Shown here: in pieces, positions 5,214-32,558 of the stretch | Layout: each line of letters opens with the position of its first letter | Numbering within the stretch: the first letter of the stretch is position 1 | NCBI GenBank assembly: GCA_036308125.1 | Contig: JAXJWH010000136.1 | Span: forward strand, 23,499 to 87,498 | Origin: Agathobacter sp. | Lineage (GTDB): Bacteria > Bacillota > Clostridia > Lachnospirales > Lachnospiraceae | Direction: 5' to 3' | DNA: 64,000 bases | The notes under the pieces: generated by a model | The model's database searches: none | The model's input: the letters and a program-made list of their open reading frames with translations, nothing else | What the model was told of the DNA's origin: nothing | Translations under genes and position numbers: made by a program

Positions 5214-5243
5214 AAAAAAAAGCCTGCTAATGCAGACTTTTTT
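5214..5243. terminator. Probable terminator at the end of fibre operon 1
   Basis: A-run, imperfect 7-bp stem (agcctgc/gcagact, one mismatch), 4-nt loop and T-run. It overlaps the stop codon of the 5227-5697 ORF. The stem is weak. Confidence 0.4.
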
Positions 5244-5697: not shown

Positions 5698-5724
5698 TCC
5701 CCTTCTCCTTACCTGTCTATTATA

Positions 5725-6945: not shown

Positions 6946-6955
6946 ACCTTCTTAA

Positions 6956-7567: not shown

Positions 7568-7582
7568 ATTACATCTCCAAAT

Positions 7583-8386: not shown

Positions 8387-8399
8387 AATAATGCCTCCC

Positions 8400-9044: not shown

Positions 9045-9541
9045 TTCTTCTTTCCTTTCTCTGATTCTTCACCCCAAATCAAATCGCCTATATACATTAG
9101 AATTACCAAACATATAATTGCAGTAATATATAATATCTTTCCTGATTTGTGATTAATTTTATCAGCAAAAAAACCTATTTTCGGAATACAAATTATTGGT
9201 TTTCCAATTACAGAACTAAATCGTACTGTTGAAGCATCCACTGTTTCATTTGCATCTCCTTTTGTTACATAACACTTATTTTCTTCATCTATAGAAGCCA
9301 CCCTGTGTGTTACAAGTGTCTCGTCATTAACATAAAAAGTAATTGTATCTCCTACTTCAATTTCATCTGAAGACACAGGTTTAACAAATACCATGGAACC
9401 TATAGGATAATTAGGTTCCATACTTCCGCTTAATACAATTAAAGGCTCAATTTTGAATATCATTGGCACATACATCACTGCCACCAGAATAATTAGTATT
9501 GATAATGCCAAACCTGTTGTATAATTCCATATTTTTTTCAT
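9014..9541 (-). CDS. sipW: SipW-type signal peptidase I (S26B)
   Basis: LSGSMEPNYPIGSMVFV, VTHRV and KGDANE, with N- and C-terminal TM segments. Size (175 aa) is typical of SipW. Confidence 0.8.
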   Translation of the reverse strand: MKKIWNYTTGLALSILIILVAVMYVPMIFKIEPLIVLSGSMEPNYPIGSMVFVKPVSSDEIEVGDTITFYVNDETLVTHRVASIDEENKCYVTKGDANETVDASTVRFSSVIGKPIICIPKIGFFADKINHKSGKILYITAIICLVILMYIGDLIWGEESEKGKKKCLRPQKSGN

Positions 9542-9545
9542 AACT

Positions 9546-17496: not shown

Positions 17497-18198
17497 TTAT
17501 TTTGAATCCTCTGAAATGTAATTAATTACTTTATTATTACACGAATCAACTGAAAACTGAGGGTAAACTCCCCACTCCGCAGCTATAGCATCTTCTTCAT
17601 TATTGACCTGTACAGCATTTACCTCTGTTTCGATGTTCAATTTTGCCTTGGAATATTTATTATCCATGTCACTGTTACATGAAATCATACTTAAAAAGTC
17701 CTGAGACTGTGAATCACTGCTAATTGGTTTTGTATAATACATTTGTAATTGCTCATTGTCATAATATGTTACAATCCAATCCCCTACTTTAATCTGCTCA
17801 TCATATGAACCTATATATACATCTGAACCATTTTTAGGTATTTCAACGTAATTGGCATTTTTCTTGTTACCGGTATTGATATATAACGAGAGCATATCTT
17901 CATCTTTATCAATTTTTGCTTCTTTATTATTTTGTTCCCAATCAAATGTCACATACACTTTGGCATACACGTCGTACCCGCCTACATTCTTAACTTTATA
18001 AGAAACCTCTGATTCGCCACCAGGCATAATCTTGATGTCATCATCAATATCTGATACTGTTTTAACCTTGAGAGATCTTTCAGATATTTTCTCTATAATT
18101 GATGAACTGTAATCCGACTTAGTTGCCATTGTTCCACCTATCAAAGCTGTTACTGCAACAACAGCTGTTGTTAACATTAATAAATACTTCTTTTTCAC
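17497..18198 (-). CDS. TasA/CalY-like secreted protein with variant SipW-cognate signal peptide
   Basis: Start moved to a GTG (VKKKYLLML), because GGAGGA lies 7 nt upstream and falls inside the longer ORF. Motifs: VTALIGGTMATKSD and IKIMPGGESEVSYKVKN. The next gene starts 14 nt downstream. Confidence 0.6.
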   Translation of the reverse strand: MKKKYLLMLTTAVVAVTALIGGTMATKSDYSSSIIEKISERSLKVKTVSDIDDDIKIMPGGESEVSYKVKNVGGYDVYAKVYVTFDWEQNNKEAKIDKDEDMLSLYINTGNKKNANYVEIPKNGSDVYIGSYDEQIKVGDWIVTYYDNEQLQMYYTKPISSDSQSQDFLSMISCNSDMDNKYSKAKLNIETEVNAVQVNNEEDAIAAEWGVYPQFSVDSCNNKVINYISEDSK

Positions 18199-18262
18199 TC
18201 TAAATTCCTCCATGTATAGGGATAAAATTACTTATTGACTGAGTGAATTATATACTTCTAAT

Positions 18263-18303: not shown

Positions 18304-18330
18304 TAAAAAAGATGACACAAATGTCATCTT
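18304..18330 (-). terminator. greA terminator
   Basis: 9-bp stem aagatgaca/tgtcatctt overlapping the greA stop codon, followed on the minus strand by T6. Confidence 0.7.
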
Positions 18331-18832
18331 AAAATTTCTTTAATACATCCTGATCTTCATCATCTGTATTTTCTATTCTTTTTATTACTACGAAATATGA
18401 ATAATCATCATTTACTTTAACTTCGCATCTGTCGCCAACTTTATGTCCAAATATTGCTGCACCAAGAGGAGATTCCTTACTTATAAGATTCTTTAATGAA
18501 TTTCCTCTGATTGTTGTAACAATTCTATATGTTTCGATTTCATCGTCTTCTTCAAAATAAACATCAACCGTATTGTTCATTCCAACTTCATCACTCTTTG
18601 ATTCATCATCTATTATAATAGCGGTCTTTATCATATTTTCGAGATATCTAATTCTGCTTTCATTTGCATTCTTAAATTTCTTGGCAGCTTTATACTCAAA
18701 ATTCTCACTTAAATCCCCCTGAGCCCTTGCTTCCTTTACATCCTCTAATGCCTGTTTCCTTACAACCAGCTTTCGATGTTCTATCTCCTCTTCCATTTTC
18801 TTAATATCCTGTCTTGTTAATTCATCATGCAT
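18329..18832 (-). CDS. greA: Transcription elongation factor GreA
   Basis: EARAQGDLSENFEYKAAK motif. Start moved to the second ATG (MHDELT), 8 nt downstream of AGGAG. Confidence 0.9.
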   Translation of the reverse strand: MHDELTRQDIKKMEEEIEHRKLVVRKQALEDVKEARAQGDLSENFEYKAAKKFKNANESRIRYLENMIKTAIIIDDESKSDEVGMNNTVDVYFEEDDEIETYRIVTTIRGNSLKNLISKESPLGAAIFGHKVGDRCEVKVNDDYSYFVVIKRIENTDDEDQDVLKKF

Positions 18833-18855
18833 TTTACACACTCCTAACATTATAT

Positions 18856-19485
18856 CTATAAATCTGACACATCCACTTTAATTATATTTGTGTCCATAAC
18901 ATTTTTATCGTCAGAACAGACACTTAACTGCATGTTTTCTTGAATCTGATAATCATAAAAATAATTTATATTCATGGTATCAATATTTTTAAAATCCAAT
19001 CTCATTCCTAATCCTTTTTGCTTGGAATAGGCCTCTTTTCTTGTCCATACAACTGCGCATTTTTCCTCAAAATGAGAAGTGTCTTCTGATACAAATTCCT
19101 GTTCTCTTTGAGTATAACATCTCTTTATAAAATTAACCTTTTCAAATCTGTCAATTTTTTCTATATCGACACCTATTGCCGTATCCGATAAGGCACATGC
19201 CGCAAATCCATTAGAATGACTGATGCTTATAAATAAATCCGTCACATTATCTATTCTGATTGCGCCATATTCATCATTAAAAAAATTAAGATTATCATAA
19301 CGATAACCCGCATTTTCCAGTGCATAACGCAATAATAATCCAGCTCCTAAGGAATTAACCTTGTTTTCCGGATTCTTACATTTATTTACCTTTATTCTCC
19401 TGTTTTCATTTACCTTCCCAAGCCCATTTTCAATAAATGAGCCATAGGAAGACAAATGTAAATCACAATAATAAACTTTTATCAT
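18856..19485 (-). CDS. 4'-phosphopantetheinyl transferase, Sfp type
   Basis: GVDIEKI and WTRKEAYSKQKG motifs. Confidence 0.75.
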   Translation of the reverse strand: MIKVYYCDLHLSSYGSFIENGLGKVNENRRIKVNKCKNPENKVNSLGAGLLLRYALENAGYRYDNLNFFNDEYGAIRIDNVTDLFISISHSNGFAACALSDTAIGVDIEKIDRFEKVNFIKRCYTQREQEFVSEDTSHFEEKCAVVWTRKEAYSKQKGLGMRLDFKNIDTMNINYFYDYQIQENMQLSVCSDDKNVMDTNIIKVDVSDL

Positions 19486-19491
19486 ATGTAT

Positions 19492-20370
19492 TTATAATAA
19501 ACCGTAAGCTAATACAATAATTCCAAGGATAATTCGATACCATCCAAATACTTTGAAATCATGCTTCTTAATATATCCCATTAAAAATTTGATTACAATT
19601 AAAGATACAACAAATGCCACAACCATTCCAAGTATCAGAATAATGAATTCTTCTGAAGTAAAACTAAGTCCAAATTTAAGTAATTTAAGCAGACTTGCTC
19701 CAAACATAACCGGAATTGCAAGGAAAAAAGTATATTCAGCGGCAACAGTTCTTGATACTCCAATCATTAATGCTCCGACAATTGTTGCCCCTGATCTTGA
19801 AGTTCCTGGGAAAACTGCTGCAATTACCTGAAATAATCCAATTAACAGTGCTGTGTTATAACTAATCTCCTTTAATGAATTAATTTTGAATATTTTTCCT
19901 TTGTTTTTTGTCTCGATTACAATAAAGGCAATTCCAAATAAGATTAACATTATTGAAACAGTCTGGTAATTGTAAAATAATTCCTCAAGTTTTTCATCAA
20001 ATGCAATACCTATTATTGCTGCTGGAACACATGAAACTAAAATATGAAACCATAATGAGAAAATATCTGTTTTAATCCATTTTCCAATTTTATTCAAAGT
20101 TCCATTTCCTTTAATTTCTAATGGTGCATTGTTGTTTTTCTTACCAAATGGCCAGATTTCATTCCAAAATAAAATTACAACGGCAAGAATTGCTCCCAAC
20201 TGAATAACAACCTCAAACATGCTGTAAAATGCATCGGGTGTATCGCCTACTTTAAGGGGAAGAATCTCATTTAATAAAATCATATGCCCTGTACTGCTTA
20301 CCGGAAGCCATTCTGTTATTCCTTCCACAATTCCAAACAAAATAGCTGTTAAAATAACTATAGTATCCAT
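19492..20370 (-). CDS. uppP: Undecaprenyl-diphosphate phosphatase (BacA/UppP)
   Basis: GITEWLPVSSTGHMIL and PGTSRSGATI motifs; polytopic membrane protein. Confidence 0.9.
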   Translation of the reverse strand: MDTIVILTAILFGIVEGITEWLPVSSTGHMILLNEILPLKVGDTPDAFYSMFEVVIQLGAILAVVILFWNEIWPFGKKNNNAPLEIKGNGTLNKIGKWIKTDIFSLWFHILVSCVPAAIIGIAFDEKLEELFYNYQTVSIMLILFGIAFIVIETKNKGKIFKINSLKEISYNTALLIGLFQVIAAVFPGTSRSGATIVGALMIGVSRTVAAEYTFFLAIPVMFGASLLKLLKFGLSFTSEEFIILILGMVVAFVVSLIVIKFLMGYIKKHDFKVFGWYRIILGIIVLAYGLL

Positions 20371-20519: not shown

Positions 20520-20672
20520 ATGTCTGAAAAAGCATACAAAGAAATGGGCGTAGCAGGTGCATTTAACCTTGCCATTGGAATATGTACTTTAGTCGGCGGA
20601 ATCGCATCAGGGATTTTACTTATTGTTCATGGTGCTAAATTATTAGCCAACAAGAAAAACATATTGTTTTAA
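20520..20672 (+). CDS. 50-aa small membrane protein, absent from the ORF track; paralog of 37714-37866
   Basis: RBS GGAGGT lies 7 nt upstream of the ATG. Translation is MSEKAYKEMGVAGAFNLAIGICTLVGGIASGILLIVHGAKLLANKKNILF. It shares 26/50 residues (my count) with the second copy and is followed by a terminator. Confidence 0.6.
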   Translation: MSEKAYKEMGVAGAFNLAIGICTLVGGIASGILLIVHGAKLLANKKNILF

Positions 20673-20673
20673 T

Positions 20674-20699
20674 AAAAGCCAGCAATAACGCTGGCTTTT
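20674..20699. terminator. Bidirectional terminator between the small ORF and the end of the Che-like operon
   Basis: aaaagccagc-aataac-gctggctttt forms a perfect stem with A/T flanks. Confidence 0.8.
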
Positions 20700-20710
20700 A
20701 TTCTGTTATT

Positions 20711-23389
20711 TTATTTTTCAACTACAAAAGCAATTCCCACAGTTCCAAAACCTGAAAAGCATGCATTGGTTACTGAACATTTCTGCATAACCACTTTTTC
20801 AAATCTGACACACTTTAATATTTCTTTCTGAAGAATTTCCTGTTGTTTTACTGAAAGTCCCGCATGTGTAATGTAAATAATATCCGTAAGCGGCGGTTTC
20901 CTAAATTTAATTTGTTTCTTAACAAATCTCACTATAGTCTTATCGTATTTTCCTATTCCAAATCCAACAATCTGTAATTCACTTTGCTTTGTTTTCAAAA
21001 CCGGATGTAATTGCAGTAAATTATATATTTTTGCCACAACTTTATTGGTATATCCATTACTATAGAAGGTATTTATGTTTGGAAGCATGAATGAAGAACA
21101 AATGCGTTTCTTAACCCGTTCTATTTCATTCATTATCTCACTAACCCCGGCTCCTTTCATTCTCATCTGTCCTGCCGCAAGTACAACTAATGCCATTCCT
21201 CCTGATATAAAACCTGAATCAACAACGTGAACATGTCCAAAACCTTTTGAAGCATTGAAAGCATTCTCGTAGCTTTTTCCCATATTCATACCAAGTGAAA
21301 TATGTATAACATCTTCGGATTCTACCAGCCTTGATGCAAAAAAATTTTCATAATCTTCTACTGTTGCAGCCTCAGTCCATATATTGTCTCCTTTTATCAG
21401 TAAATCAGAAATACTTTCAGAATTTACTTCCTGCTGGTCTTTAAACCTGCTTTTATCAGTATTTATATATAGATGAATTTGCTTAATATTGTACTTTTCT
21501 ACCCACTCTTCCTTCAGATCGCAAACGCAATCACAGGTAATGCATACCTTTGCCTTGTTTCGCTCAGAAAAAAGTATTGTTTCTCCCGGCAGCAGTTTAT
21601 TCTTTTGGTTCAAATCCAGTCTGTATTCCAAAATGTCATCAGGCAGAAAATTCAAAATTGCCTGTTCAAGCTGAATTCCCCTGAAGGGTTTTTCAATCAT
21701 TCCGTCAAATCCAAATTCCACAAATCTTTTACCAAGATTTAATGTCTGGTCAGCGGTAAGGACAATCACCGGACTGTCTTTACACAAACCATTTTCCTGC
21801 TTTCTAATATTCTTTAATGTTTGTAATCCATCCATCTCCGGCATCATGTAATCCATTAAAATTACATTATAATATTTTTCCTTTGTTTTTTTCAGACATT
21901 CCTTTCCACTGGATACAGTATCTAACTGCAATTTTGTTTCCTTTAATAATTTTGAAACAACAACCCTGTTCATGTCATTATCATCAACCACCAGAATTCT
22001 TGCCTCCGGCGCTTCAAACAAGTGCTGATAAAAATCATTTCTTTTACTCTTATGAATTGCAAATTCAACAACTCCCATTGAGGATTTATCTATTACCTGC
22101 TGTTCCAAAATAACTGTAAATGTTGAACCTCTTGTATATATACTGTCAACTGTCAGTTCTCCACCCATAAGATCCACAAGTTTCTTTGAAAGTGACAAGC
22201 CAAGTCCTGCTCCCTCGCCTTTTTGTTTGTCTGAATATTTTAAATCCATGTAAGAATTAAATAAAGTCTCCAGACGCTCTGTCTTAATTCCAACACCTGT
22301 ATCTTCTACTGAAATAATTAATTTACACCATTCTTCACCAATTTTTTCTGACCTTGCAGATAATGTAACAGCACCTTCTTTTGTATATTTTACGGCATTT
22401 GTTAAAATATTAATTAATATTTGCTTAATTCGTCTTTCATCTCCATACAAAATCGCCGGAATATCACTGTCAATATTTACTATAAAATCAAGTTCTTTTT
22501 CCTTTACCGGCACTTGTGCCATGTCAACTATACTTTCAAATAGTTCTTTTGTTTCATATGAAACAGGGACTATTTCCATCTTCTGTCCTTCGATTAATGA
22601 AATATCCAGTATGTCATTAACTAAGGATAAAAGCATATTTCCAGAACTTTGTATCGTGGTCACATTTTCCATTACTTCATCTGAAATATCCGGCTGACGT
22701 AATATGGTTTCAACCAATCCCATTATCGTATTAATTGGTGTTCTGATTTCATGACTCATGCTTGCAAAGAAATCATTTTTGCTGTTACTGAATTTTGCTA
22801 TTTCATCCTTTTGCTCTAATGCCTGCTTTCTTTCCATGTCATATGCTTTAAGCTGATATTTTGTTACAACTCCCAGCAATATTCCCACAAGAATAACTCC
22901 ATATAATGAATCCAGATAAACCTGTGCCTTATTATCCATCGGAATTATGTACTGTGGATATCTGTATCCAATATAGTATGTTACACAATATACTGTAACA
23001 GCCATGCCAAGCATTAACCTCATAGCTCTGCCGTTATACATTCCTATTGCATAAAATATTCCAAGGCTAAACCATATGGTAGCTCCCCCTTCAATTCCAC
23101 CACTTAAGAAAAATACACTTGGAAATGCTATAAAAATACACGCAATTTCAACTAATGCTGCTGCAATTTCTATTTTTCTATATTTATATGTCAGAATCAA
23201 TGCAACAAGTAACGATATTGTCACTACAGAAATAGGAATAAGTGTATAATATGCACTTGTGGCTAACAATATTTCCCCACATGAAAAAATGCAAAAAATA
23301 AATCCAAATAAAACAATTTTTCTTATTAATCTCTCCCTGAGGCTGAATTCATTTGTTTCTTCATGAAATATTTTTGATACTTTGCCCAT
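20711..23389 (-). CDS. Hybrid sensor histidine kinase: polytopic membrane N-terminus + HisKA/HATPase + receiver + C-terminal DegV-like domain
   Basis: SHEIRTPINTIMG is the H-box; G-boxes are present. The receiver has VVDDNDMN..MDYMMPEMDG. The last about 281 aa align to the DegV/FakB pattern (VCITCDCVCDL..IHISLGMNMGKSYENA..VVDSGFISGG..LHPVL..GFGTVGIAF). Confidence 0.75.
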   Translation of the reverse strand: MGKVSKIFHEETNEFSLRERLIRKIVLFGFIFCIFSCGEILLATSAYYTLIPISVVTISLLVALILTYKYRKIEIAAALVEIACIFIAFPSVFFLSGGIEGGATIWFSLGIFYAIGMYNGRAMRLMLGMAVTVYCVTYYIGYRYPQYIIPMDNKAQVYLDSLYGVILVGILLGVVTKYQLKAYDMERKQALEQKDEIAKFSNSKNDFFASMSHEIRTPINTIMGLVETILRQPDISDEVMENVTTIQSSGNMLLSLVNDILDISLIEGQKMEIVPVSYETKELFESIVDMAQVPVKEKELDFIVNIDSDIPAILYGDERRIKQILINILTNAVKYTKEGAVTLSARSEKIGEEWCKLIISVEDTGVGIKTERLETLFNSYMDLKYSDKQKGEGAGLGLSLSKKLVDLMGGELTVDSIYTRGSTFTVILEQQVIDKSSMGVVEFAIHKSKRNDFYQHLFEAPEARILVVDDNDMNRVVVSKLLKETKLQLDTVSSGKECLKKTKEKYYNVILMDYMMPEMDGLQTLKNIRKQENGLCKDSPVIVLTADQTLNLGKRFVEFGFDGMIEKPFRGIQLEQAILNFLPDDILEYRLDLNQKNKLLPGETILFSERNKAKVCITCDCVCDLKEEWVEKYNIKQIHLYINTDKSRFKDQQEVNSESISDLLIKGDNIWTEAATVEDYENFFASRLVESEDVIHISLGMNMGKSYENAFNASKGFGHVHVVDSGFISGGMALVVLAAGQMRMKGAGVSEIMNEIERVKKRICSSFMLPNINTFYSNGYTNKVVAKIYNLLQLHPVLKTKQSELQIVGFGIGKYDKTIVRFVKKQIKFRKPPLTDIIYITHAGLSVKQQEILQKEILKCVRFEKVVMQKCSVTNACFSGFGTVGIAFVVEK

Positions 23390-23403: not shown

Positions 23404-26184
23404 TTATTTACCATCAACCTTTATTTTAATTCGTTTTAGTGCTTCATATGCAGACATATAATCTGACATATCCACCTTCTTATATATTGGTTCAAGTAAA
23501 CTACTTATTCGTTTTTCTTTGTATTTATATTTTGTCAGTTCTTTTAATATTGATAACATATTTTCATCTTCCCATGTGTATACTGCATTTTCAAACTCAT
23601 CAATGTATCTTTCAAATTCTTCAGGTGCAAGTTCTTCTAATTCTGATACATCATCTTCCATTTGCTCATTAATGCTAAAATTATGTCCTAATACATCCAT
23701 AACTTTATCATATTCCTGAATCATTTTATCGTGATTTTCCTTTATGAAATCAATTCTTTTTTCTTTGCCTGCATATTCTAATTCTTTACACATATCTGAA
23801 AGCTTGTTTATACCAATACTTTTCATGGAACTTTTTATTCCATGAACAAATATAACATAATTATCCCAATCTTCCTTATTATAAAAGTCAATAATTTTAT
23901 TTCTGTTTTCCTGACTGTCTTCATATTGAAGTCTTAAAATGTCTATATAATCTTCCTTGGTTCCACAATATGTTATTCCTTGCTTAATATCAATCTGCAA
24001 ATCTTCAAAATCCAGTTCCACGTCAATATCCACATTTTTTTCTTTATCCTTTGGTTTTTCTTCGATTACAGTTTCTTCTTCTGCTTTATCATCAGGTTCT
24101 TCAACAGGCTTGTCTATTGGAATAAGTTTATCCTCTGGAAGAAATTCTCTAAGAACCCTGTCAAGCACAGATATCTCAATTGGCTTTGCAACAAATTCCT
24201 GAAAACCTTCTTTCAAAAACATCTCTCTTGCACCTGCAACCGCATTTGCAGTTAATGCAATAATCGGAACTTCTCTATAATACAATTCATTCTTCTTTCT
24301 GATTCTATGAAGAGTTTCTACTCCATCCATCTCAGGCATCATATGATCCATGAAAATAATATCGTATTTTTTGCTTTCAATTTTTTCTAGCACTTCCGCT
24401 CCACTAAGAGCTGTTGAAATATTCATCTTATATGTTTTAAGCAGTGAACTAGCCACTTTTAGATTCAGATAATTATCATCAACAATCATTACATTTGCAT
24501 TCGGAGCAATAAAATGTCCTATACTTATATTTTTACCACTATATTCTTTTGAAATTGCAACGCCTTTGATAATAGAAACAATCGGCAAAATATAAAACGG
24601 CTTATATAATCTTATTAATGAATCATTTTTTAATTCCTTTTCTCTTGCCTTATCTATAACAATTATTAATTTATGCTTTTGGCTTAACTCATCAAAATAT
24701 TCTTTGTCCTCACAGTATGATTCCCAACTGATAAACAAATCACTAAAATATTCTCTTTCTACACGCCTTTGAAATTCTGCTAAATTCCTGCACCTGTGAA
24801 AACGAACATTTAACTGTTCTGCCATGTGCGATATGTTATTAAGATATGCATCCCTTATGGCTATCATATCAAACTGTTCCATATTAATGTATAAAAGTAC
24901 ATTGACTCTGTTTAAATTTTCTAATTCAATAAGAGGCGCTTTATCCTGAACTTTCTGTGGAATTACAAACTGAAATTCACTTCCCTTTCCTAATTCACTC
25001 TTAACATTTATAAAACCGCCCATTTGCTCAACAATCTTTTTGGAAATGGCAAGTCCAAGTCCAATACCGCCTTCCTGCCTGTTTCTTTTTGTGTCAACCT
25101 GGTTAAAACTTGTAAATAATTTTTCCCTGCTTGTATCATCAAGACCAATTCCTGTATCCTTAACCGAAACACACAAATTTATTCCGTAATATTCTTCTCT
25201 ATATGTAAATGTAATGGTAATACATCCATCGTTCGTAAATTTAATTGCATTGCTTAGAAAATTTAAAATCAATCGTCTGATTTTCTGTTCATCCCCTACC
25301 AGTTCTCTTGGAATTGTTGCATCACAGTCCACAACAAGCTCTATATTTTTATTAGATTTCCATGCATTTGCAAGATTAATTACATCATTTATCGTTGAAG
25401 CCAAATTATAAGATACTTCCGTTATTGTCTGTTTCCCTGAATTAAGTTCCGAAAAATCAAGTAAATCATTTACTACTGTAAGCAGTTTTCTTCCGGATGT
25501 CTGAATATCTTCGATTTTTTCCTTTAAATCAGGACTTAATTCATCATGCAATATCACTTCGCTCATACCTGAAATTGTATTAATAGGTGTTCGAATTTCA
25601 TGACTTACGTTTGCCAGAAAATCATCTTTGCTGTGTTCTGCTTTTTTTAATTCCTTGATGGCATCATCTACTTCCTTTTTATTCTTTATCCTATTAATGA
25701 TATCTTTCCATACATATATGATGATAACGTACATATTTATAATAGAAGTGAAATTGTAATAATAGTCAGTAAAGGAATTAAGAATAATGGTTTTTTTCAC
25801 AAAATAATGGTAGAGCACTATAATCGTAAAGGATATAATTGGCAGAAATAGTAAATCCGGAATAGTATAAAGACTCATAAAGAAAACGATTCCCACAAAT
25901 GGCAGTGCTATCAGAAGATAGTTATCTATATTAAATGCATATATAACAACACAACATTCTACCAGCACAGATATATATAATGCCCTTCCTTTAACATCCC
26001 ATCTATTTGTTGCATAAATAATTACATTAGAAACCACCACAAAAATATTAAAATAAACTATTAATCTGTCCCAATTGAAATGTAAAACGCCAATAGTCAT
26101 ACATACTATATGGAATGAATATGCCACTAAAATAAACAGCTCTCTTTTTCGATTTATACTATCCAGACATACCTTTTCTTCCAT
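23404..26184 (-). CDS. Hybrid sensor histidine kinase: polytopic membrane N-terminus + HisKA/HATPase + receiver + HPt
   Basis: Start moved to MEEKVCLDS (GGAGG 5 nt upstream). H-box SHEIRTPINTISG; receiver MIVDDNYLN..MDHMMPEMDG; C-terminal HPt motif VHGIKSSMKSIG. Confidence 0.8.
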   Translation of the reverse strand: MEEKVCLDSINRKRELFILVAYSFHIVCMTIGVLHFNWDRLIVYFNIFVVVSNVIIYATNRWDVKGRALYISVLVECCVVIYAFNIDNYLLIALPFVGIVFFMSLYTIPDLLFLPIISFTIIVLYHYFVKKTIILNSFTDYYYNFTSIINMYVIIIYVWKDIINRIKNKKEVDDAIKELKKAEHSKDDFLANVSHEIRTPINTISGMSEVILHDELSPDLKEKIEDIQTSGRKLLTVVNDLLDFSELNSGKQTITEVSYNLASTINDVINLANAWKSNKNIELVVDCDATIPRELVGDEQKIRRLILNFLSNAIKFTNDGCITITFTYREEYYGINLCVSVKDTGIGLDDTSREKLFTSFNQVDTKRNRQEGGIGLGLAISKKIVEQMGGFINVKSELGKGSEFQFVIPQKVQDKAPLIELENLNRVNVLLYINMEQFDMIAIRDAYLNNISHMAEQLNVRFHRCRNLAEFQRRVEREYFSDLFISWESYCEDKEYFDELSQKHKLIIVIDKAREKELKNDSLIRLYKPFYILPIVSIIKGVAISKEYSGKNISIGHFIAPNANVMIVDDNYLNLKVASSLLKTYKMNISTALSGAEVLEKIESKKYDIIFMDHMMPEMDGVETLHRIRKKNELYYREVPIIALTANAVAGAREMFLKEGFQEFVAKPIEISVLDRVLREFLPEDKLIPIDKPVEEPDDKAEEETVIEEKPKDKEKNVDIDVELDFEDLQIDIKQGITYCGTKEDYIDILRLQYEDSQENRNKIIDFYNKEDWDNYVIFVHGIKSSMKSIGINKLSDMCKELEYAGKEKRIDFIKENHDKMIQEYDKVMDVLGHNFSINEQMEDDVSELEELAPEEFERYIDEFENAVYTWEDENMLSILKELTKYKYKEKRISSLLEPIYKKVDMSDYMSAYEALKRIKIKVDGK

Positions 26185-26243
26185 AAAAACCTCCGTTTTT
26201 AAAATGACCAGCATCACCAAAGGACACTGGTCATTCATCTGCG

Positions 26244-27608
26244 TTAATATTTTCCAAAATCATCTCCAAGAGAAATTATCAATTCATTTGGATTCTTTTC
26301 ATTATCATTTATAACTGCATTGTCATTTCTGTCAATTGTATTAAACATACTATCATGCTCTTCTTCTTTGCCAAGATTATATATTGACAGCAATTCTCTC
26401 ATGTGAACAGCCTGATTTGATAATTCTTCACTTGCTGCTGCACATTCCTGGCTTGTTGCCGAATTATTCTGCACAACCTGAGAAACCTGACCTATTGCCT
26501 GATTAATCTGTGCCACTGAAGTTGCCTGATAATTTGAAGACTCCGCAATCTCTTTTATGTAAACCTCACTTTCAGAAACAACCTTAGTTATTGCATCCAA
26601 TGCATTTGATGTTTCATTGGCAATTTTTGAACCTGCTTCAACCTTCAAAATTGAATCTTCAATTAATTCTGCTGTTTCAGATGCAGCATCTGCACTTTTG
26701 GCAGCTAAATTTCTTACTTCCTCTGCTACAACTGCAAATCCTTTTCCAGCTTCTCCGGCTCTTGCAGCTTCTACTGCTGCATTAAGGGCAAGGATATTTG
26801 TCTGAAATGCAATATCATCAATAACTTTTATTATGTTCGAAATACTTTCTGATGCTTTATTAATATCCTGCATTGCATTCATCATTTCATGCATCTGTTT
26901 GTTGCCCTGCTTTACATCAACAATTGCCTTTGATACTAATGAAGCAGCTTCATTTGCCTGATTTGCATTTTGCTTTGTTTTTTCGGCAATTTCACTTATT
27001 GACGCTGTAATTTCTTCTATCGCACTTGCCTGCTGTGTTGAACCCTGTGCCAATGCTTCGCTTGCAGTTGCAACCTGTGAAGAACTTGTCATAACCTGAT
27101 ATGCCGATTCACTAATATTTCCAAGTGTGGTCTTATTTCTGTCTACCATACTTTTTAAAGCATTTCCTAAAAGGTCTTTATCTCCACGAGGTGATACTTT
27201 AATTGTAAGATTGCCGTTCGCCACATCTTCTGCTATCTGGGCCTGAACAAGACTTTCGTTAATTAAATTATTTAATTCATCAATTAATTCTCCAAACTCA
27301 TCTTCTCTTTCCTTAGGTATTTCAAATTCAATATCACCTATGGAAAGTTTTTTAGTTGCATCTTTTACTGTTCCAAAGCCTTCTTTTAAACTTTTAAGTA
27401 TTGTAATTGGAAAATATATCATAATCACAATCATAATAACAAGCATAACAATACATACTATATTATAATATCTTAAGAAAACCTCCGGGTCATTTGCCTG
27501 TACTACTTTCCTTGCTGTTGAGTATCCACAATAAAGCAGGAAAACCATTACAACATCCATAACCACAAAAACTATCCCTAGTTTCTTCTGTATCCCCAAA
27601 TCCTTCAT
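26244..27608 (-). CDS. Methyl-accepting chemotaxis protein with two TM segments, a loop of about 20 aa instead of a sensor domain, and a HAMP domain
   Basis: Signalling-domain motif [39 protein letters not shown]1 and TM2 are separated only by [20 protein letters not shown]. Confidence 0.85.
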
Positions 27609-27613
27609 ATATA

Positions 27614-28111
27614 TTATTCTCCCTCCACTTCTTTTGTACCTTTTCCTTTATCTGTAAGTCCAAGTTCTTCGTCTGCCAAAAGTCTTTCCGGATCAAGCAA
27701 CAATTTTACTTCATCTCCAACTCTTCCGATTCCATATACATACTTACTGTGAGTATTATCGTTTTTATTTATGGTAGGCGATGGAATTACATTTTCTTCA
27801 AGAATTTCAACCACCTCTGCTATTTTTTCTACTATAAGCCCTACAACCATATCCTTGATATTTAAAACAATAATACATGTTCGGTCTGTATATTCAAATG
27901 GCTCCTGAACAAATCTAAGCCTTACATCCACAACAGGAATAATCTTTCCTCGTAAATTTATAAGTCCTTTTATATAGCTTTCAGTCTCTGGTACTTCTGT
28001 TATATCCTGATAACAAATTATCTCATTGACATATTCTATTTTTAAACCATAAGTTTCATTTCCGGACTTAAAGGTAACGTATTTGTCCTTTTGTGTTATA
28101 TGTTCAACCAT
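27614..28111 (-). CDS. cheW: Chemotaxis coupling protein CheW
   Basis: 165 aa with the CheW-like pattern YGLKIEYVNEI..INLRGKIIPVVDVR. It sits between the MCP and cheA. Confidence 0.8.
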   Translation of the reverse strand: MVEHITQKDKYVTFKSGNETYGLKIEYVNEIICYQDITEVPETESYIKGLINLRGKIIPVVDVRLRFVQEPFEYTDRTCIIVLNIKDMVVGLIVEKIAEVVEILEENVIPSPTINKNDNTHSKYVYGIGRVGDEVKLLLDPERLLADEELGLTDKGKGTKEVEGE

Positions 28112-28131
28112 ATTATGTCAGTCCTTTCTAC

Positions 28132-30279
28132 TTATTCACAAATAGTTCCAGGATCAAGAATTAATGCAATACTGCCATCTCCTAACTGTGTACAGCCTGA
28201 TAATCCTTTTACCTTTTTAACATAAGATGGAATAGGTTTTACAACTATCTCCTGTTTTCCTACCAGCCTGTCAACGAAAAGACAGATATTTTTTCCGTCA
28301 ACTTCCAAAATAACCATCATGCCATCCTCGACATTTCGCTGATATTCTGATAACCCATACCATTCTCCCAATCTTCTTACAGGGTAACATTCACCTCGTA
28401 TCATTACGCCTTCTTCGCCGCCAGGCTCATGTATCATCATTTTTTCTGTGACACTTACGAACTCCTTAACAACACCGGTTTCAATTACAAACGAAGAATG
28501 TCCTACCTGCATAACGATTCCATCAACAATAGCAAGTGTTAATGGGATTTTTAAATTCATTACACTTCCTTTTCCTGACTCGCTTTCAATTTCCAAAGTT
28601 CCACCGATTTCCTGAAGGTTCGATACTACAACATCCATACCTACACCTCTTCCTGAATATTCGGTAACTTTTTCATTTGTTGAAAAACCTGGAAGTGTAA
28701 TAAACTGATATACTTCCTTATCTGAATATGCACTGTCTGGCTTTGCAGGATCTAAAATTCCCTGTCTTCTAGCCTTTTCCATAATTTTTTCTCTGTCTAA
28801 GCCGGCTCCGTTGTCTGCTACTCCAATCCATACCTTTCCAGATTCAGTCTTGGCAGATAATGTGATTTTTCCTCGCTCAGATTTTCCTGCTGCAATACGT
28901 TCTTCCTTTGATTCAATTCCATGATCCACTGAATTTCTTACAAGATGCATTAAAGGATCAGATATATGCTCTATAATATTTTTATCTACTTCAGTGTTCT
29001 CGCCAATCATTTCAAATTCAATGTCTTTTCCCAATTTTCTTGAAACATCAAATACAATTCGATTCATTTTCTGGAAAGTATTTGCAAGAGGTACCATTCT
29101 CATAGACATAATTACATTTTGTAAATCTGTCGAGATTTTTGACATTTGTGCTGCTGCCTTGTTAAAATTATCTAACTTTAATCCAGGAACTTTCAAATCC
29201 TGATTCTGTAAAACTACTGATTCAGAGATTACCAATTCTCCAATTAAATCCATAAGCATATCCATTTTAGCAATATCAACACTTATAAATGATGTTTTTT
29301 CCTGTTTTGTTTTCTTGTCCTTTGCAAGTTTCTTGCCTTTACCAGGTACTTTTGACTGAACAACATAGTCACCTGGCGCAGGTTTTTTTACTTCCTGAAT
29401 ATTGTTGCTATTATTTTGAGCATTACTTTCAATTTCTTCAACTGAAGAATCCAAATCAATTCGGATTTCAGAACCAATTCCATCAAAACCTTGCATATAC
29501 TCACGTTCAGTACATTCGTATATGTCAACCTTCTTGATATCATATCCAGGTTTAATTATTTTGTGCAATTCACTTTCTTCTTTTTGAGAATGAAGTAAAA
29601 TTTTAAATCCATCCTCTAATATTGTGAGCGCACTTCCTTCATTAGAGATAATATCATCAGGCATATACATTATTTCTTTGGCAATTTCTTTCAAAGCATA
29701 AACAATCTTATATGCATGAACATTTGCTAATTCAATTTCAGGATAATATTCAATATATATCCTATAATAATGACTTTCACCTACCACTGCAGGAGGTATG
29801 TAAAACTGCTGCTTTGATGTTGCAATTTCCCCGGTACTTTCCTCATTATCCTGATTCTTAGCTGTTTTTTCCCCCTTCAAGCCATTTAAAAATTCATCTA
29901 ATCGCTTTATAATCTCTGATGAATCTCCATCAGCTTCATCACCATTTTGAATTTTGTCCATTTCAGCAGTTATAAAATCTGCTACTTCCAAAACATGCTC
30001 CACAAGCTCCACATGCTCCACATTTTTAGGGTGTGATTCTCTTAAATAATAAAACACGTCCTCCAATTTATGTGCAACTGCAGTAATATCATCATACATC
30101 ATAATTGCTGATGAACCTTTTATTGTATGCATTGTTCTGAAAATTTCATTAATACTGTCTTCATCAAAATATTCTTCATCTTTTTGATCTAAAACTATTT
30201 CCTGAAGATTTTCTAACAATTGAGTATTCTCAAATAAATATGTATCAAGCATATCCTCAGTATTGAATTCAACGCCCAT
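28132..30279 (-). CDS. cheA: Chemotaxis histidine kinase CheA
   Basis: HPt motif HTIKGSSAIM, HATPase region DHGIE..DNGAGLD..GRGVGMDVV, and a C-terminal CheW-like domain. Confidence 0.9.
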   Translation of the reverse strand: MGVEFNTEDMLDTYLFENTQLLENLQEIVLDQKDEEYFDEDSINEIFRTMHTIKGSSAIMMYDDITAVAHKLEDVFYYLRESHPKNVEHVELVEHVLEVADFITAEMDKIQNGDEADGDSSEIIKRLDEFLNGLKGEKTAKNQDNEESTGEIATSKQQFYIPPAVVGESHYYRIYIEYYPEIELANVHAYKIVYALKEIAKEIMYMPDDIISNEGSALTILEDGFKILLHSQKEESELHKIIKPGYDIKKVDIYECTEREYMQGFDGIGSEIRIDLDSSVEEIESNAQNNSNNIQEVKKPAPGDYVVQSKVPGKGKKLAKDKKTKQEKTSFISVDIAKMDMLMDLIGELVISESVVLQNQDLKVPGLKLDNFNKAAAQMSKISTDLQNVIMSMRMVPLANTFQKMNRIVFDVSRKLGKDIEFEMIGENTEVDKNIIEHISDPLMHLVRNSVDHGIESKEERIAAGKSERGKITLSAKTESGKVWIGVADNGAGLDREKIMEKARRQGILDPAKPDSAYSDKEVYQFITLPGFSTNEKVTEYSGRGVGMDVVVSNLQEIGGTLEIESESGKGSVMNLKIPLTLAIVDGIVMQVGHSSFVIETGVVKEFVSVTEKMMIHEPGGEEGVMIRGECYPVRRLGEWYGLSEYQRNVEDGMMVILEVDGKNICLFVDRLVGKQEIVVKPIPSYVKKVKGLSGCTQLGDGSIALILDPGTICE

Positions 30280-30312
30280 ACCCTTCTCCTTCCCCCTTTT
30301 CCCTTATATTAT

Positions 30313-30714
30313 CTATTCTACAAATCCTAATTTCTTAAGAGCCTGTTCGAATCTGTTTTGGTCAATTGGTTTTCCTGAATATATTGTGCATCCAAGTTCA
30401 AAAGCCATCTTAACATTTTTTTCTTCATTCAAGGCTGTTGCCATTATTACTTTTACCTGCTTATCTTCTGGAATATTTCTTTCTTTTTCCAGATTTCTAA
30501 TCCCCATTAAAGCCTGATAACCATCCATAACAGGCATCATAATATCAAGACAAACCAAATCATAAGGTTCATCTTCTTCCAATGCAAGCATAAATGCATC
30601 TACAGCTTCACTTCCATCCACTGTTACATCGCATTCTCCATATTTTGATAAAAAATTTGCCATAAATTTTCTAGTAACAAAATCATCCTCTGCCAATAAT
30701 ATCTTCATCTTCAA
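30313..30714 (-). CDS. Single-domain response regulator (CheY-like)
   Basis: 133 aa. LAEDD, CLDIMMPVMDG, MATA and GKP positions are all present. Confidence 0.8.
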   Translation of the reverse strand: MKMKILLAEDDFVTRKFMANFLSKYGECDVTVDGSEAVDAFMLALEEDEPYDLVCLDIMMPVMDGYQALMGIRNLEKERNIPEDKQVKVIMATALNEEKNVKMAFELGCTIYSGKPIDQNRFEQALKKLGFVE

Positions 30715-30720
30715 TTCTCC

Positions 30721-31743
30721 TTACATTTGATTTAATAAATTATATGTTCTCTTAGGAATATCGGTTAGTTTCTCCTGATACTGTACAGCTCCTATATCAT
30801 ATGCTACCTTTGGCATCCCATAAACAACACATGTGCTTTCATCCTGACCAATGGTTTTTGCTCCCATCTGCCGCATATTTAAAAGTCCTCTTGCTCCGTC
30901 AGCCCCCATCCCCGTCAGAAGTATACCTATGGCATTACTTTGTGCAACCGAGGCAACTGACTCAAATAAAACATCAACTGACGGACAATGTCCGTTAATT
31001 TTTGGACCTTTTCTCAAATCAATTTTATAATTTTTACCAGATTTACAAATCCTCATTTGACAATTTCCCCCAGGAGCAATTAAAACCTGTCCTGGTAAAA
31101 CCAAATCCCCATTTACCGCTTCCTTAACTGTCACCCTGCACTGGTCATTCAATCGCTTTGCATACATCTGTGTAAATCCTGGTGGCATATGCTGAACCAC
31201 AACCACCCCCGGAATGTCAACTCCAAATTCCTTAACTACACTTGCAATTGCTTCTGTTCCTCCAGTGGATGCTCCAATTGCTATAAGCAACTCTCTTTTA
31301 TTTTCAGCCACAAATCTTTTTGCCGGATTTTTCTTTTTTATAAAACTAATTCTGGCAGTTGAAGCAATTTTAATTTTCACTGGAAGTTCTCTTTTGATAA
31401 ATCTTTCCAACGCACTTTTTTCAGAAACAACAGGTTTTGCTACAAAATCAACTGCCCCTGCCTGCATTGCATCGAATACTTTATCATTCAGTGAACTAAT
31501 AACAACCACCGGAATCGGATATTGAGGAATTAATTTTCTTAAAAAATCTATTCCATTCATCTTGGGTAACTCTATATCCAAAGTCATAACATCCGGCTGA
31601 TATTCTATGATTTTATCTCTGGCTTCATATGGGTCAACAGCTGTTGCAACTACTTCTATGGAAGAATCGCTATTTAATCCATTTACCAGCAATTCCCTGA
31701 ATACAGCTGAGTCCTCAACCACCAATACTCGAATTTTTCTCAT
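30721..31743 (-). CDS. cheB: Protein-glutamate methylesterase CheB (receiver + esterase)
   Basis: VLVVEDS receiver; esterase motifs GASTGG, VQHMP and TGMGADG. Confidence 0.9.
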   Translation of the reverse strand: MRKIRVLVVEDSAVFRELLVNGLNSDSSIEVVATAVDPYEARDKIIEYQPDVMTLDIELPKMNGIDFLRKLIPQYPIPVVVISSLNDKVFDAMQAGAVDFVAKPVVSEKSALERFIKRELPVKIKIASTARISFIKKKNPAKRFVAENKRELLIAIGASTGGTEAIASVVKEFGVDIPGVVVVQHMPPGFTQMYAKRLNDQCRVTVKEAVNGDLVLPGQVLIAPGGNCQMRICKSGKNYKIDLRKGPKINGHCPSVDVLFESVASVAQSNAIGILLTGMGADGARGLLNMRQMGAKTIGQDESTCVVYGMPKVAYDIGAVQYQEKLTDIPKRTYNLLNQM

Positions 31744-31754
31744 ATTATATCCCC

Positions 31755-32558
31755 CTATTTAATAAAAATAGACGGACTTACCAATTTAAATGGCACCACG
31801 TTTCTATTTAATGTTTCTGTTTTGCCAAGAAACAAATATCCTCCCGGCTCTAAACAGTCATATATCTTTTTTAATATTTTATTTTTAGTCGGCTCATCAA
31901 AATATATCAATACATTTCTCAAAAACACAACATTCATTTTTTTCTTAAAAGGAAAATTACTCATTAAATTAAATTTCCTAAACAAAACTTCTTTTTTCAG
32001 TTCCTCTTTAACCTCAAATTCATTTGTGCCGGGAATCTGCTTAAAAAATCGTCTTTTCCAATTGTCCGGAACAGGAGCTATCTGCTCATCAGTATAAATT
32101 CCCTTTATCGCCTGAAGCAATACTTCTGTTGACACATCCGTTGCAAGAACCGTTGTATCCCATTTCCCAAATTCCAATCCAAAAAAATCACTTAATATCA
32201 TTGCTATGGTATAAGGTTCTTCTCCTGATGATGCCGCCGCACACCATATCCTTATATCTTTGGATGCTTCTTCTTTCCTTTTTAGTTCTGGCAGTACTTT
32301 ATTTTTTAAAAAATCAAAATGCTCAGCTTCTCTCATAAAATATGTATGATTAGTAGTCAGATGGTCAACCAGCTTTTTTTCCAATTCTCCGGTTATATCT
32401 TTTTCCACATCATTCATATATGCAGTATAGCTTGTCCAGCCTTCAAACCTAAGATAATTATCCAGTCTGCCTTCTATGATTTTTTGTTTATTGGATAAAT
32501 CTATACCATAATGTTTTTTTACAAAATCCCTAATCCTTATATATTCCTGCTCCGTCAT
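31755..32558 (-). CDS. cheR: Chemotaxis protein methyltransferase CheR
   Basis: TNHTYFMRE and IWCAAASSGEEPYT motifs. Confidence 0.9.
   Translation of the reverse strand: MTEQEYIRIRDFVKKHYGIDLSNKQKIIEGRLDNYLRFEGWTSYTAYMNDVEKDITGELEKKLVDHLTTNHTYFMREAEHFDFLKNKVLPELKRKEEASKDIRIWCAAASSGEEPYTIAMILSDFFGLEFGKWDTTVLATDVSTEVLLQAIKGIYTDEQIAPVPDNWKRRFFKQIPGTNEFEVKEELKKEVLFRKFNLMSNFPFKKKMNVVFLRNVLIYFDEPTKNKILKKIYDCLEPGGYLFLGKTETLNRNVVPFKLVSPSIFIK

Follow-up and report, generated by a model that had tools for sequence, protein, structure and literature searches.

What might a DegV domain, the fold of the fatty-acid-binding FakB proteins, be doing at the end of a hybrid histidine kinase? The question is raised by an 892-aa protein, referred to below as HK2, which is encoded at 20711-23389 of a 64,000-nt stretch of DNA from Agathobacter sp., a gut bacterium of the Lachnospiraceae (contig JAXJWH010000136.1 of assembly GCA_036308125.1). 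This whole stretch is the window; all positions are given in its coordinates, and all genes and protein domains described here lie on its minus strand. To our knowledge, the only DegV/FakB proteins described so far are free-standing ones, which carry fatty acids and present them to FakA. In the literature that we searched, sensor kinases with a lipid-binding DegV-fold cytoplasmic input have not been described.

A full-length DegV/FakB-type domain at the end of a hybrid kinase

HK2 opens with a membrane region (aa 1-185, 22835-23389) that consists of several hydrophobic segments with a conserved FFLSGGxEGGAxxWF motif, and that contains neither a large extracytoplasmic domain nor a Pfam family. 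The kinase core (22100-22783) comprises HisKA (aa 203-268; Pfam, 4e-17), with the phosphorylated histidine H213, and HATPase_c (aa 316-430; 1.5e-25); it is followed by a receiver (REC; aa 465-578, 21656-21997; Response_reg, 4.8e-25) with D469, D470, the phospho-acceptor D513, T545, and K567. The complete kinase and receiver that the original prediction had placed ahead of the DegV domain are thus matched part by part. Throughout the HK2 family (121 of 121 sequences), H213, N327/N331, the DTGxG and GxGLG motifs, D469, D470, D513, and K567 are retained, and a Pfam search of HK2 gives no match to a histidine phosphotransfer (Hpt) domain, the DegV domain occupying that C-terminal place. Judged from these residues, HK2 is a membrane-bound hybrid kinase that has kept its catalytic equipment; it has no Hpt domain.

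The last 281 residues (aa 612-892, 20714-21556) coincide exactly with the stretch that had been predicted to form a DegV domain, and profile searches, structure prediction, and structural comparison all agree on the assignment. Both DegV profiles are above their cut-offs: Pfam PF02645 matches aa 614-889 at 7e-36 and 124.4 bits (cut-off 27), covering positions 1-278 of the 280 in the profile, and NCBIfam TIGR00762 scores 130.6 bits against 99.7. The AlphaFold2 (AF2) model of the domain has a pLDDT of 92 and a pTM of 0.90, and in a Foldseek comparison with the PDB the best 45 matches are all DegV/FakB structures, with TM scores of 0.80-0.88 and E-values down to 1.7e-25; model and matches both display the two-lobed fold, an EDD-type N-domain plus a C-domain. 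Each of the DegV motif blocks originally picked out by eye aligns with solved DegV/FakB chains. The end of HK2 is therefore a full-length, well-folded DegV/FakB-type domain. Every DegV structure in the Foldseek list of PDB matches whose title reports a ligand has a fatty acid bound.

Between receiver and DegV domain runs a linker (aa 590-611, 21557-21622) that is acidic and poorly conserved, with a mean pairwise identity of 22% in the HK2 family, and that ends in a conserved polybasic patch right before DegV strand beta1. In an AF2 model of the receiver and DegV domain together, the linker has a pLDDT below 50 and the pTM is 0.65. As modeled, the DegV domain appears to be flexibly tethered to the receiver via a disordered linker; the same pTM and linker disorder leave a rigid REC-DegV unit unsupported, and the two-domain model offers no confident contact surface between REC and DegV by which gating might be transmitted.

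The head-group site and the residues of FakB

To ask what the domain has kept of FakB function, we mapped its residues by alignment to SaFakB2 (4x9x) and TtDegV (2dt8), using both single sequences and profiles, across the 121 family sequences. In a FakB study, the ligand carboxylate is described as coordinated by T61, S93, and H264; R170 lies at the tunnel mouth, and the R170A substitution abolishes Fak activity, as R202A abolishes FakA binding (PMC10848957). In SaFakB2 numbering, S93 corresponds to Gly704 in HK2 (Gly in 118 of 121 sequences), R170 to Tyr780 (Tyr in 90, Phe in 12, and Arg in 8 family members), and H266 to Phe878 (Asn in 79, Ser in 15, Phe in 12). The R202 position, K814 in HK2, is variable (Arg in 36, Lys in 29, Asn in 28). 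T61 aligns with Thr672 in HK2, in a variable-loop column that holds V, F, or H in the MAFFT alignment and A, S, or T in the HMM alignment, and the region equivalent to Leu-181, in the FakA-binding loop, is still hydrophobic in the family. The NCBIfam equivalog model for FakB1 (NF038249) has a cut-off of 350 bits, and HK2 scores 50.6.

The replacement of S93 by Gly, of R170 by Tyr, and of H266 by Asn or Phe, the unconserved R202 position, and the low FakB1 score make it unlikely that this domain presents fatty acid to FakA, and on the residues at those four positions we ruled out FakA docking and a true FakB role. By the evidence of these alignments, the domain is not a FakB; the residues for holding the carboxylate and for FakA phosphorylation have been lost in what reads as a derived signaling subclass. 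The earlier description of the domain as FakB-like accordingly holds for its fold and fails for its functional residues, which are replaced family-wide. With the carboxylate-binding residues gone, any ligand may be something other than a free fatty acid.

What has been lost is matched by a set of residues specific to the family. The TDS block reads T-C-D-C, as first noted, with the aspartate (D620) kept and the serine replaced by Cys621 (codon at 21527-21529), at the end of beta1; this position is Cys in 120 of 121 sequences. A second cysteine, Cys877 (codon at 20759-20761; Cys in 119 of 121), directly precedes the position of the canonical carboxylate-binding histidine (SaFakB2 H266). D620, H719, and H795 complete the group of new near-invariant residues, and the strongest family-specific conservation falls on positions around the FakB ligand head group, namely C621, G704, Y780, and C877/N878 (F878 in HK2 itself). 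Mean pairwise identity in the family is 0.53 for the DegV domain, 0.48 for the TM region, and 0.22 for the linker. The identity of the domain relative to that of the linker, together with its new invariant residues, indicates that the subclass is not decaying, and that purifying selection acts on a domain with invariant polar residues of its own.

A widespread kinase pair with an HD-GYP regulator

Directly upstream of HK2, in 83 of 83 loci, is the gene for a second hybrid kinase, HK1 (23404-26238 in the window), a 944-aa BarA-type protein composed of a TM region, HisKA, HATPase, a 140-aa insert, REC, and an Hpt domain. The Hpt domain is matched by Pfam (E of 2.2e-4), the NCBIfam BarA-model alignment reaches aa 826, and the Hpt histidine is invariant (84/84). 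HK1 and HK2 have paralogous cores; their kinase parts are 38% identical, their receivers 42%. Further upstream, at the head of the operon, lies a REC-HD-GYP regulator (32570-33640, 356 aa) with an intact GYP motif and an HD dyad that reads CD; this replacement of the first His by Cys makes the catalytic activity of the HD-GYP protein uncertain. A REC-HD-GYP gene shares the strand of HK1 and HK2 in 44 of 87 loci, lies upstream of the pair in 42, and is present in the operon wherever the contig extends far enough; it is likely the output of the module. HK2 thus belongs to a widespread three-gene module of Hpt-bearing HK1, HK2, and REC-HD-GYP, the genes of which often overlap by 4 nt. A 471-aa non-hybrid histidine kinase, HK0 (33652-35067), opens the operon here and in a subset of loci. 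At the other end, 9 nt past the HK2 stop codon, a 13-bp hairpin with A/T runs on both sides (20671-20702) is likely the intrinsic terminator of the operon.

The space between HK1 and the REC-HD-GYP gene is filled in the window by a chemosensory cassette (26244-32558) that encodes MCP (26244-27608), CheW (27614-28111), CheA (28132-30279), CheY (30313-30714), CheB (30721-31743), and CheR (31755-32558). The original prediction had tied the DegV domain to a Che-like phosphorelay, and the cluster is indeed present upstream; it is not conserved, however, with a CheA-containing cassette in only 38 of 87 loci as against the constant presence of HK1, and about half of the loci have the kinase pair and REC-HD-GYP without any Che genes. 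We therefore dismissed the Che cluster as a defining context and regard the cassette as optional. Genes for PgsA-like, Cls-like, and UppP proteins flank the operon in the window, the PgsA-like and Cls-like ones just upstream of it. Some 35 other loci in which the contig leaves enough space ahead of the module lack these PgsA/Cls neighbors there, and a conserved linkage to phospholipid genes was dismissed on that ground as local synteny. The tie to membrane lipid status drawn in the original prediction is conjectural. A plasmid search with one neighboring gene returned no match and was uninformative.

The fusion itself is not rare. Using a family set built from full-length HK2 matches plus an exhaustive representative search, we found the HK-REC-DegV architecture in at least 241 GTDB species, essentially all of them Lachnospiraceae, with 120 near-full-length homologues that contain all four domains. 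One ORF of 874-925 aa covers TM region, kinase, REC, and DegV in 81 of the 87 independent loci; of the other six, two ORFs begin at a contig edge and four have other lengths or lack a TM-region match. As had been suspected, the literature searched contains no study of an HK-REC-DegV protein, making this a widespread yet uncharacterized fusion in that literature.

Relatives of the domain, gathered by a profile search of a 1.84-billion-protein library (E ≤1e-60), occur in several other two-component architectures. Some stand at the N-terminus of HK-REC-Hpt kinases, in the sensor position, and others accompany dCache sensors; still others lie between REC and Hpt, or form DegV-Hpt and HATPase-DegV-Hpt fusions. 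At one locus (L089), where REC-HD-GYP again heads the operon, DegV is a separate gene that immediately follows one for HK-REC, and at another (L088) a related DegV gene lies upstream of a REC-GGDEF gene. The relatives in the N-terminal sensor position retain S10, S93, and R170, and relatives that are N-terminal or fused to Hpt have Ser rather than Cys at the C621 position.

A putative cytoplasmic ligand sensor and its relation to known systems

The reading that we favor, and to which we give close to an even chance of being right, is that the DegV domain, on its flexible tether, senses a ligand in the cytoplasm and so gates a relay in which two kinases share one Hpt domain and which leads to the HD-GYP regulator. 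After autophosphorylation, HK1 and HK2 would each phosphorylate the receiver of their own chain; the one Hpt domain, that of HK1, would gather this phosphate and hand it to REC-HD-GYP, which would then change how c-di-GMP or a related nucleotide is turned over. The DegV domain would act as an input, not as an enzyme or FakA partner: a putative sensor of a hydrophobic (lipid or fatty-acid-like) ligand in the cytoplasm, with ligand occupancy as the gate on phosphate transfer at the REC/Hpt step. The sequence of transfers among HK1, HK2, CheA, CheY, and REC-HD-GYP is proposed from their domain content. Overall, the module probably brings c-di-GMP under the control of a lipid-like signal. Both an input and an output role had been envisaged for the domain at the outset, and the input is the better supported of the two, given that related DegV domains are found at the N-terminal sensor position, with dCache, near Hpt, and as a separate gene.

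A broader version of this idea seems to us possible if somewhat doubtful: the DegV variant may represent an unrecognized class of sensor domain that reads lipids or fatty acids in the cytoplasm for two-component phosphorelays and that has been repeatedly recruited. In gut Lachnospiraceae that are dominant butyrate producers, it would couple the state of fatty acids or lipids inside the cell to c-di-GMP, and to the chemosensory pathway where Che genes are present, with a head-group site rebuilt on two invariant cysteines and recognizing something else than a free carboxylate. The positions of recruitment in that broader version are the N-terminal sensor, the gap between REC and Hpt, the place C-terminal to REC, the DegV-Hpt fusion, and the split gene.

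Among the alternatives, a ligand-free scaffold fares best, and even this we consider unlikely. The DegV domain would here be kept as a docking module for HK1, its Hpt domain, or the HD-GYP regulator, with a vestigial lipid pocket, as might be suggested by the loss of the carboxylate network and the FakA-binding arginine, by the flexible tether and the occurrence of DegV as a separate protein, and by its repeated fusion beside Hpt. A scaffold would not lead one to expect the top family-specific conservation to surround the FakB head-group site, with no new surface patch identified; the fatty acid held by all ligand-titled DegV structures in the Foldseek list, and the S10, S93, and R170 of the N-terminal-sensor relatives, speak against it as well.

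It is quite improbable that the domain is instead an output under receiver control, in which phosphorylation of D513 would alter the holding of fatty acid by DegV or its hand-over (e.g., to FakA or PlsX) and thereby regulate phospholipid synthesis. We note that response-regulator outputs normally sit C-terminal to the receiver, as DegV does, which counts for an output and against the input reading, and the phospholipid-type genes flanking the operon in the window would fit such a role. However, the R170 equivalent is Tyr, the R202 equivalent is unconserved, and H266 is lost; the PgsA/Cls neighborhood is missing at the other loci, homologous domains upstream of the kinase core elsewhere fit an output poorly, and no confident REC-DegV interface is predicted.

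The near-invariance of C621, which replaces the TDS serine, and of C877 raises a further alternative, namely that these cysteines, with D620, H719, and H795, make up a sensor of redox state, metal, or electrophiles, a covalent ligand site, or a site of phospho-Cys or phosphatase chemistry in the relay. C621 occupies what we take to be the topological position of the phospho-His in the related EDD-fold protein EIIA-Man, and the existence of DegV-Hpt and HATPase-DegV-Hpt fusions is compatible with such chemistry. The Ser found at the first position in Hpt-fused or N-terminal members means that Cys chemistry cannot explain the whole clade, and the DegV domain contains no CX5R or similar catalytic motif; we regard this explanation as very unlikely. 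Finally, the chance that a stand-alone DegV gene was misjoined to a kinase gene by annotation or assembly is negligible: although stand-alone relatives do adjoin HK-REC genes, the artefact is refuted by the single uninterrupted ORF in the window, its counterparts in the 81 independent assemblies, and the 120 four-domain homologues.

If, as in the sensor reading that we favor, the domain senses lipid, two-component systems would gain a sensor domain of a new type. Lachnospiraceae include major human-gut butyrate producers (Roseburia, Agathobacter, and relatives), and a lipid sensor would offer a way for fatty acids in the gut, or for the state of the membrane, to govern motility, adhesion, or biofilm behavior in these commensals. 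The family-specific substitutions point to C621, C877, and Y780 as residues for mutation.

Comparison with known systems places the module beside several of them. With FakB/DegV proteins (PF02645; SaFakB2 4x9x, TtDegV 2dt8), the HK2 domain has in common the same two-lobed fold (TM 0.80-0.88) and the DS...SxG, NLL, P, and GxGxxG blocks; those proteins stand alone, whereas the HK2 domain is fused to a hybrid kinase and its TDS reads T-x-D-C. In the RpfC/RpfG system of Xanthomonas, which responds to DSF, the fatty-acid signal is sensed by an Hpt-bearing hybrid kinase, whose phosphorylation target is a c-di-GMP phosphodiesterase of the REC-HD-GYP type. The present module likewise has a multi-TM hybrid kinase with REC and Hpt, a co-encoded REC-HD-GYP, and plausibly a fatty-acid-type signal; it differs in the second, Hpt-less kinase that bears DegV, in the CD that stands for the HD dyad, and in its Gram-positive Lachnospiraceae host. 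The operon contains no gene for an RpfF-type (enoyl-CoA-hydratase-type) synthase, and NCBIfam matches are only generic and sub-threshold (BarA, 366 bits against 890; NosR-family, 129 against 400). Membership of the RpfC/RpfG family was therefore rejected, the resemblance being architectural, with no family-level match.

The LadS/RetS/GacS proteins of Pseudomonas aeruginosa form a multikinase network that shares one Hpt domain. Here too a hybrid kinase that lacks an Hpt domain (HK2) has as its partner an unorthodox kinase that carries one (HK1), and their cores are paralogous; unlike in that network, the HK1 and HK2 genes are always adjacent and often overlap, the Hpt-less partner has a DegV domain, and the output is REC-HD-GYP instead of a GacA-type transcription factor. 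Wsp, a chemosensory system with an alternative function, leads through a CheA-type pathway to a c-di-GMP enzyme. The window resembles it in having a full CheA/W/Y/B/R/MCP set within an operon that also encodes a c-di-GMP-type response regulator; in the present module, by contrast, the Che cassette is dispensable, about half of the loci lacking it, and the output is HD-GYP, not GGDEF.

HK2, a hybrid kinase ending in a DegV domain

The HK2 reading frame, 20711..23389 (-), is uninterrupted and encodes 892 aa, in which Pfam places HisKA at aa 203-268 (4e-17), HATPase_c at aa 316-430 (1.5e-25), Response_reg at aa 465-578 (4.8e-25) and DegV at aa 614-889 (7e-36, profile positions 1-278 of 280), and detects no Hpt domain. 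Across our family alignment (121 sequences), H213, the N/G1/G2 boxes, D469/D470, K567 and the phospho-acceptor D513 are each present in 121/121; HK2 is, judged from sequence, a functional hybrid kinase whose kinase and receiver parts are intact. No Pfam family matches the N-terminal 185 aa, a region with several hydrophobic stretches in which the motif FFLSGGxEGGAxxWF is conserved. The stop codon is followed, after 9 nt, by a 13-bp hairpin.

The original prediction placed a DegV domain at 20714-21556, exactly aa 612-892, and both profile and predicted fold bear this out. In addition to the Pfam match, the NCBIfam DegV domain model TIGR00762 scores 130.6 bits, above its cut-off of 99.7, and an AlphaFold2 model built from 32 homologous domains reaches pLDDT 92 and pTM 0.90. 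When the PDB is searched with this model by Foldseek, DegV/FakB fatty-acid-binding proteins take all of the first 45 places (TM 0.80-0.88, E to 1.7e-25), with FakA_C and DhaK, other EDD-fold proteins, ranking next and well behind. Aligned pairwise by HMMER with DegV/FakB chains of solved structure, the domain shows every motif block that had been pointed out, as well as the change of the TDS triad to T-C-D-C. The linker between receiver and DegV domain is poorly conserved and, as modelled, disordered (linker pLDDT <50; two-domain pTM 0.65). This stretch (window 21557-21622 (-), aa 590-614) is acidic, variable and predicted to be disordered, and is closed, directly before DegV strand beta1, by a polybasic patch that is conserved, with the consensus R-K-R-K-K in the family.

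A FakB fold without FakB residues

In the fatty-acid-binding protein FakB2 of S. aureus (SaFakB2, PDB 4x9x), T61, S93 and H264/266 coordinate the carboxylate of the fatty acid, Fak activity depends strictly on R170, at the tunnel mouth, and L181 and R202 are required for binding of the fatty-acid kinase FakA (PMC10848957). We mapped these positions in three ways (single-sequence alignment, 121-sequence family alignment and profile-to-PDB alignment); SaFakB2 and domain numbering coincide over the first 105 residues. S93 corresponds to G704 (Gly in 118/121 of the family), R170 to Y780 (Y90, F12 and R8 among 121), H266 to F878 (N79, S15 and F12 among 121), R202 to K814 (R36, K29 and N28 among 121), and T61 to T672, in a loop that varies across the family. 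Against the NCBIfam FakB1 equivalog model the domain reaches 50.6 bits, where the cut-off is 350. The domain has the FakB fold but, on these residues, is not a FakB, the Fak-specific residues being lost, and by most measures applied it falls outside the functional FakB proteins. The family has gained near-invariant positions of its own: D620-C621, with Cys in place of the TDS serine in 120/121, H719 (120/121), H795 (114/121), and C877 (119/121), which directly precedes the old His position. With mean pairwise identity of 0.53 in the DegV domain, 0.22 in the linker, 0.48 in the membrane region and 0.62-0.72 in the catalytic domains, the alignment indicates a domain under purifying selection, not one that is decaying.

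We searched a profile of this domain against 1.84 billion representative proteins, obtaining 11,741 matches at E<=1e-3 and 573 at E<=1e-30, and drew architectures other than the ~890-aa kinase from the best 150. These comprise DegV-(~220 aa)-HisKA-HATPase-REC-Hpt (P0187, P0246, P0252, P0256), DegV-dCache-HK-REC-Hpt (P0258), DegV-HK-REC (P0227), DegV-Hpt (P0217, 448 aa), REC-DegV-Hpt (P0221, P0237, P0262), HATPase-DegV-Hpt (P0234, 816 aa, in which HATPase and DegV lie too close for an intervening receiver), dCache-HK-REC-DegV (P0223) and stand-alone DegV proteins of ~285 aa. Hpt domains recurrently adjoin the DegV variant (e.g. P0234, P0217). Locus L089 (1-7832 of a metagenome contig) begins with REC-HD-GYP, continues with a protein of 868 aa that Pfam does not match and an HK-REC (591 aa), and has directly after the latter a stand-alone DegV protein (287 aa) belonging to this subclass; it is a split version of the window arrangement; at locus L088, a stand-alone member lies upstream of a REC-GGDEF gene. 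Nearly all clade members carry Asn at H266, often with a neighbouring Cys, and S10, S93 and R170 are kept in N-terminal-fusion and many stand-alone members; read from the aligned residues, these signatures form a gradient, with the ~890-aa family at its most derived end. The subclass is a mobile signalling module, reused modularly, including in sensor positions.

Distribution and gene neighbourhood

The best 120 database homologues of HK2 (44-59% identity, ~890 aa) all have the same four domains; their named sources are Roseburia, Blautia and Lachnospiraceae MAGs, and their sole annotation is 'DegV family EDD domain-containing protein'. When one genome per GTDB species was scanned, at least 241 species proved to have relatives, the best 80 of which belong to Agathobacter, Roseburia, Acetatifactor, Kineothrix, Lachnobacterium and other Lachnospiraceae. 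The nearest species representative is only 53% identical within the DegV domain, and the exact protein occurs in metagenome assemblies only. At 81 of the 87 loci surveyed, the reading frame is 874-925 aa long and includes TM, kinase, REC and DegV; of the remaining six, two start at contig edges (L014, L015) and four have another length or no TM-region match (L026, L041, L062, L086).

In the window, HK2 closes a series of co-directional genes that runs HK0 (a non-hybrid histidine kinase), REC-HD-GYP (32570-33640 (-)), CheR, CheB, CheY, CheA, CheW, MCP, HK1 and HK2. HK1 (23404..26238 (-); TM-HisKA-HATPase-insert-REC-Hpt) lies directly upstream of HK2 in 83/83 loci containing upstream sequence, frequently with a 4-nt overlap, and its Hpt histidine is invariant (84/84). 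The two kinases are 38% identical in the kinase core and 42% in REC, and on this similarity are paralogous in both. The unassigned HK1 insert (aa 436-575, ~140 aa between HATPase and REC), conserved enough for BLAST detection in nearly all loci, may be a pseudo-receiver. REC-HD-GYP heads the operon in every locus with a long enough contig; 38/87 loci have a Che cassette between it and HK1, and another arrangement, REC-HD-GYP without CheA, is found in 38/87, with HK1 then HK2 directly after in 34 of these. From these counts, REC-HD-GYP, HK1 with its Hpt and HK2 with its DegV domain form a conserved triad, with the Che-like pathway as an optional insert. The Che-like link of the original prediction is present in the window as gene linkage and is not the conserved element. 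REC-HD-GYP is 63-65% identical where HK2 is only 46-47% (P0041, P0066, P0086, P0102). It keeps HHExWDGxGYP, its HD dyad reads CD (PLCDLGN) in 5/5 sequences compared, and metal ligation may be altered in this HD-GYP variant. Against NCBIfam, HK1 and REC-HD-GYP gave generic sub-threshold matches only.

Directly upstream of the operon, at 35580-37567 (-), are genes for a PgsA-like CDP-alcohol phosphatidyltransferase (191 aa) and a cardiolipin-synthase-like (Cls-like) product with two PLD domains (471 aa); ~35 other loci show no such neighbourhood upstream of the module, so the adjacency is probably local synteny. After the operon, at 18329-20370 (-), come UppP (BacA), an Sfp-type 4'-phosphopantetheinyl transferase and GreA, all kept 3' of the kinase in nine loci near the window lineage (L007-L010, L013, L061, L066, L070), some labelled Agathobacter; elsewhere a few loci keep one or two, and most none. 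Further downstream, a secreted/surface protein cluster (5227-18213 (-)) includes genes for a camelysin/TasA-like protein (6956-7567), an S26 signal peptidase resembling SipW (9014-9541), a SpaA/PA14 adhesin of 970 aa (9546-12458), a BTAD/Trans_reg_C regulator (14345-15559) and two signal-peptide proteins outside any Pfam family (15713-18213). The cluster could be a locus for a matrix or fibre, and L007 has similar BTAD and SpaA/PA14 genes downstream. The pyruvate phosphate dikinase gene at 39847-42525 (-) has a local G+C of 0.43, against ~0.33 across the remaining window. A plasmid search with a gene from the window gave no match.

A candidate relay and its precedents

We tentatively favour, at somewhat less than an even chance, a two-kinase, one-Hpt relay to REC-HD-GYP gated by a DegV ligand sensor. 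HK1 and HK2 would both feed a single Hpt, that of HK1, which would phosphorylate REC-HD-GYP and so alter c-di-GMP-type nucleotide turnover; the DegV domain would be a tethered cytoplasmic sensor of a hydrophobic ligand, gating the REC/Hpt step. That the domain is instead a ligand-free docking scaffold seems unlikely. A receiver-controlled hand-off of fatty acid to FakA is more doubtful still, because R170, R202 and H266 are lost and DegV is placed N-terminally in other architectures. We give equally little credence to a thiol, redox, metal or phospho-Cys site on C621/C877, disfavoured as a general explanation because the first position is Ser in Hpt-fused and N-terminal members. An artefactual fusion is excluded for practical purposes by the uninterrupted window frame, the 120 four-domain homologues and the 81/87 loci alike.

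The original prediction was aware of no studied HK-REC-DegV protein, and our full-text literature searches likewise found no description of DegV fused to a histidine kinase or receiver, as a response-regulator output, or in two-component or c-di-GMP fusions; in the passages covered here, a network analysis of DegV domains from 2025 deals with FakB proteins alone. The architecture proved common, as the species scan shows, and visible in databases, yet it is uncharacterised. Among known systems, the module is alike in architecture only to RpfC/RpfG DSF signalling, which pairs a hybrid kinase bearing Hpt with REC-HD-GYP and responds to a fatty-acid signal, to LadS/GacS-type multikinase networks, in which one Hpt is common to several kinases, and to Wsp-type chemosensory control of c-di-GMP.
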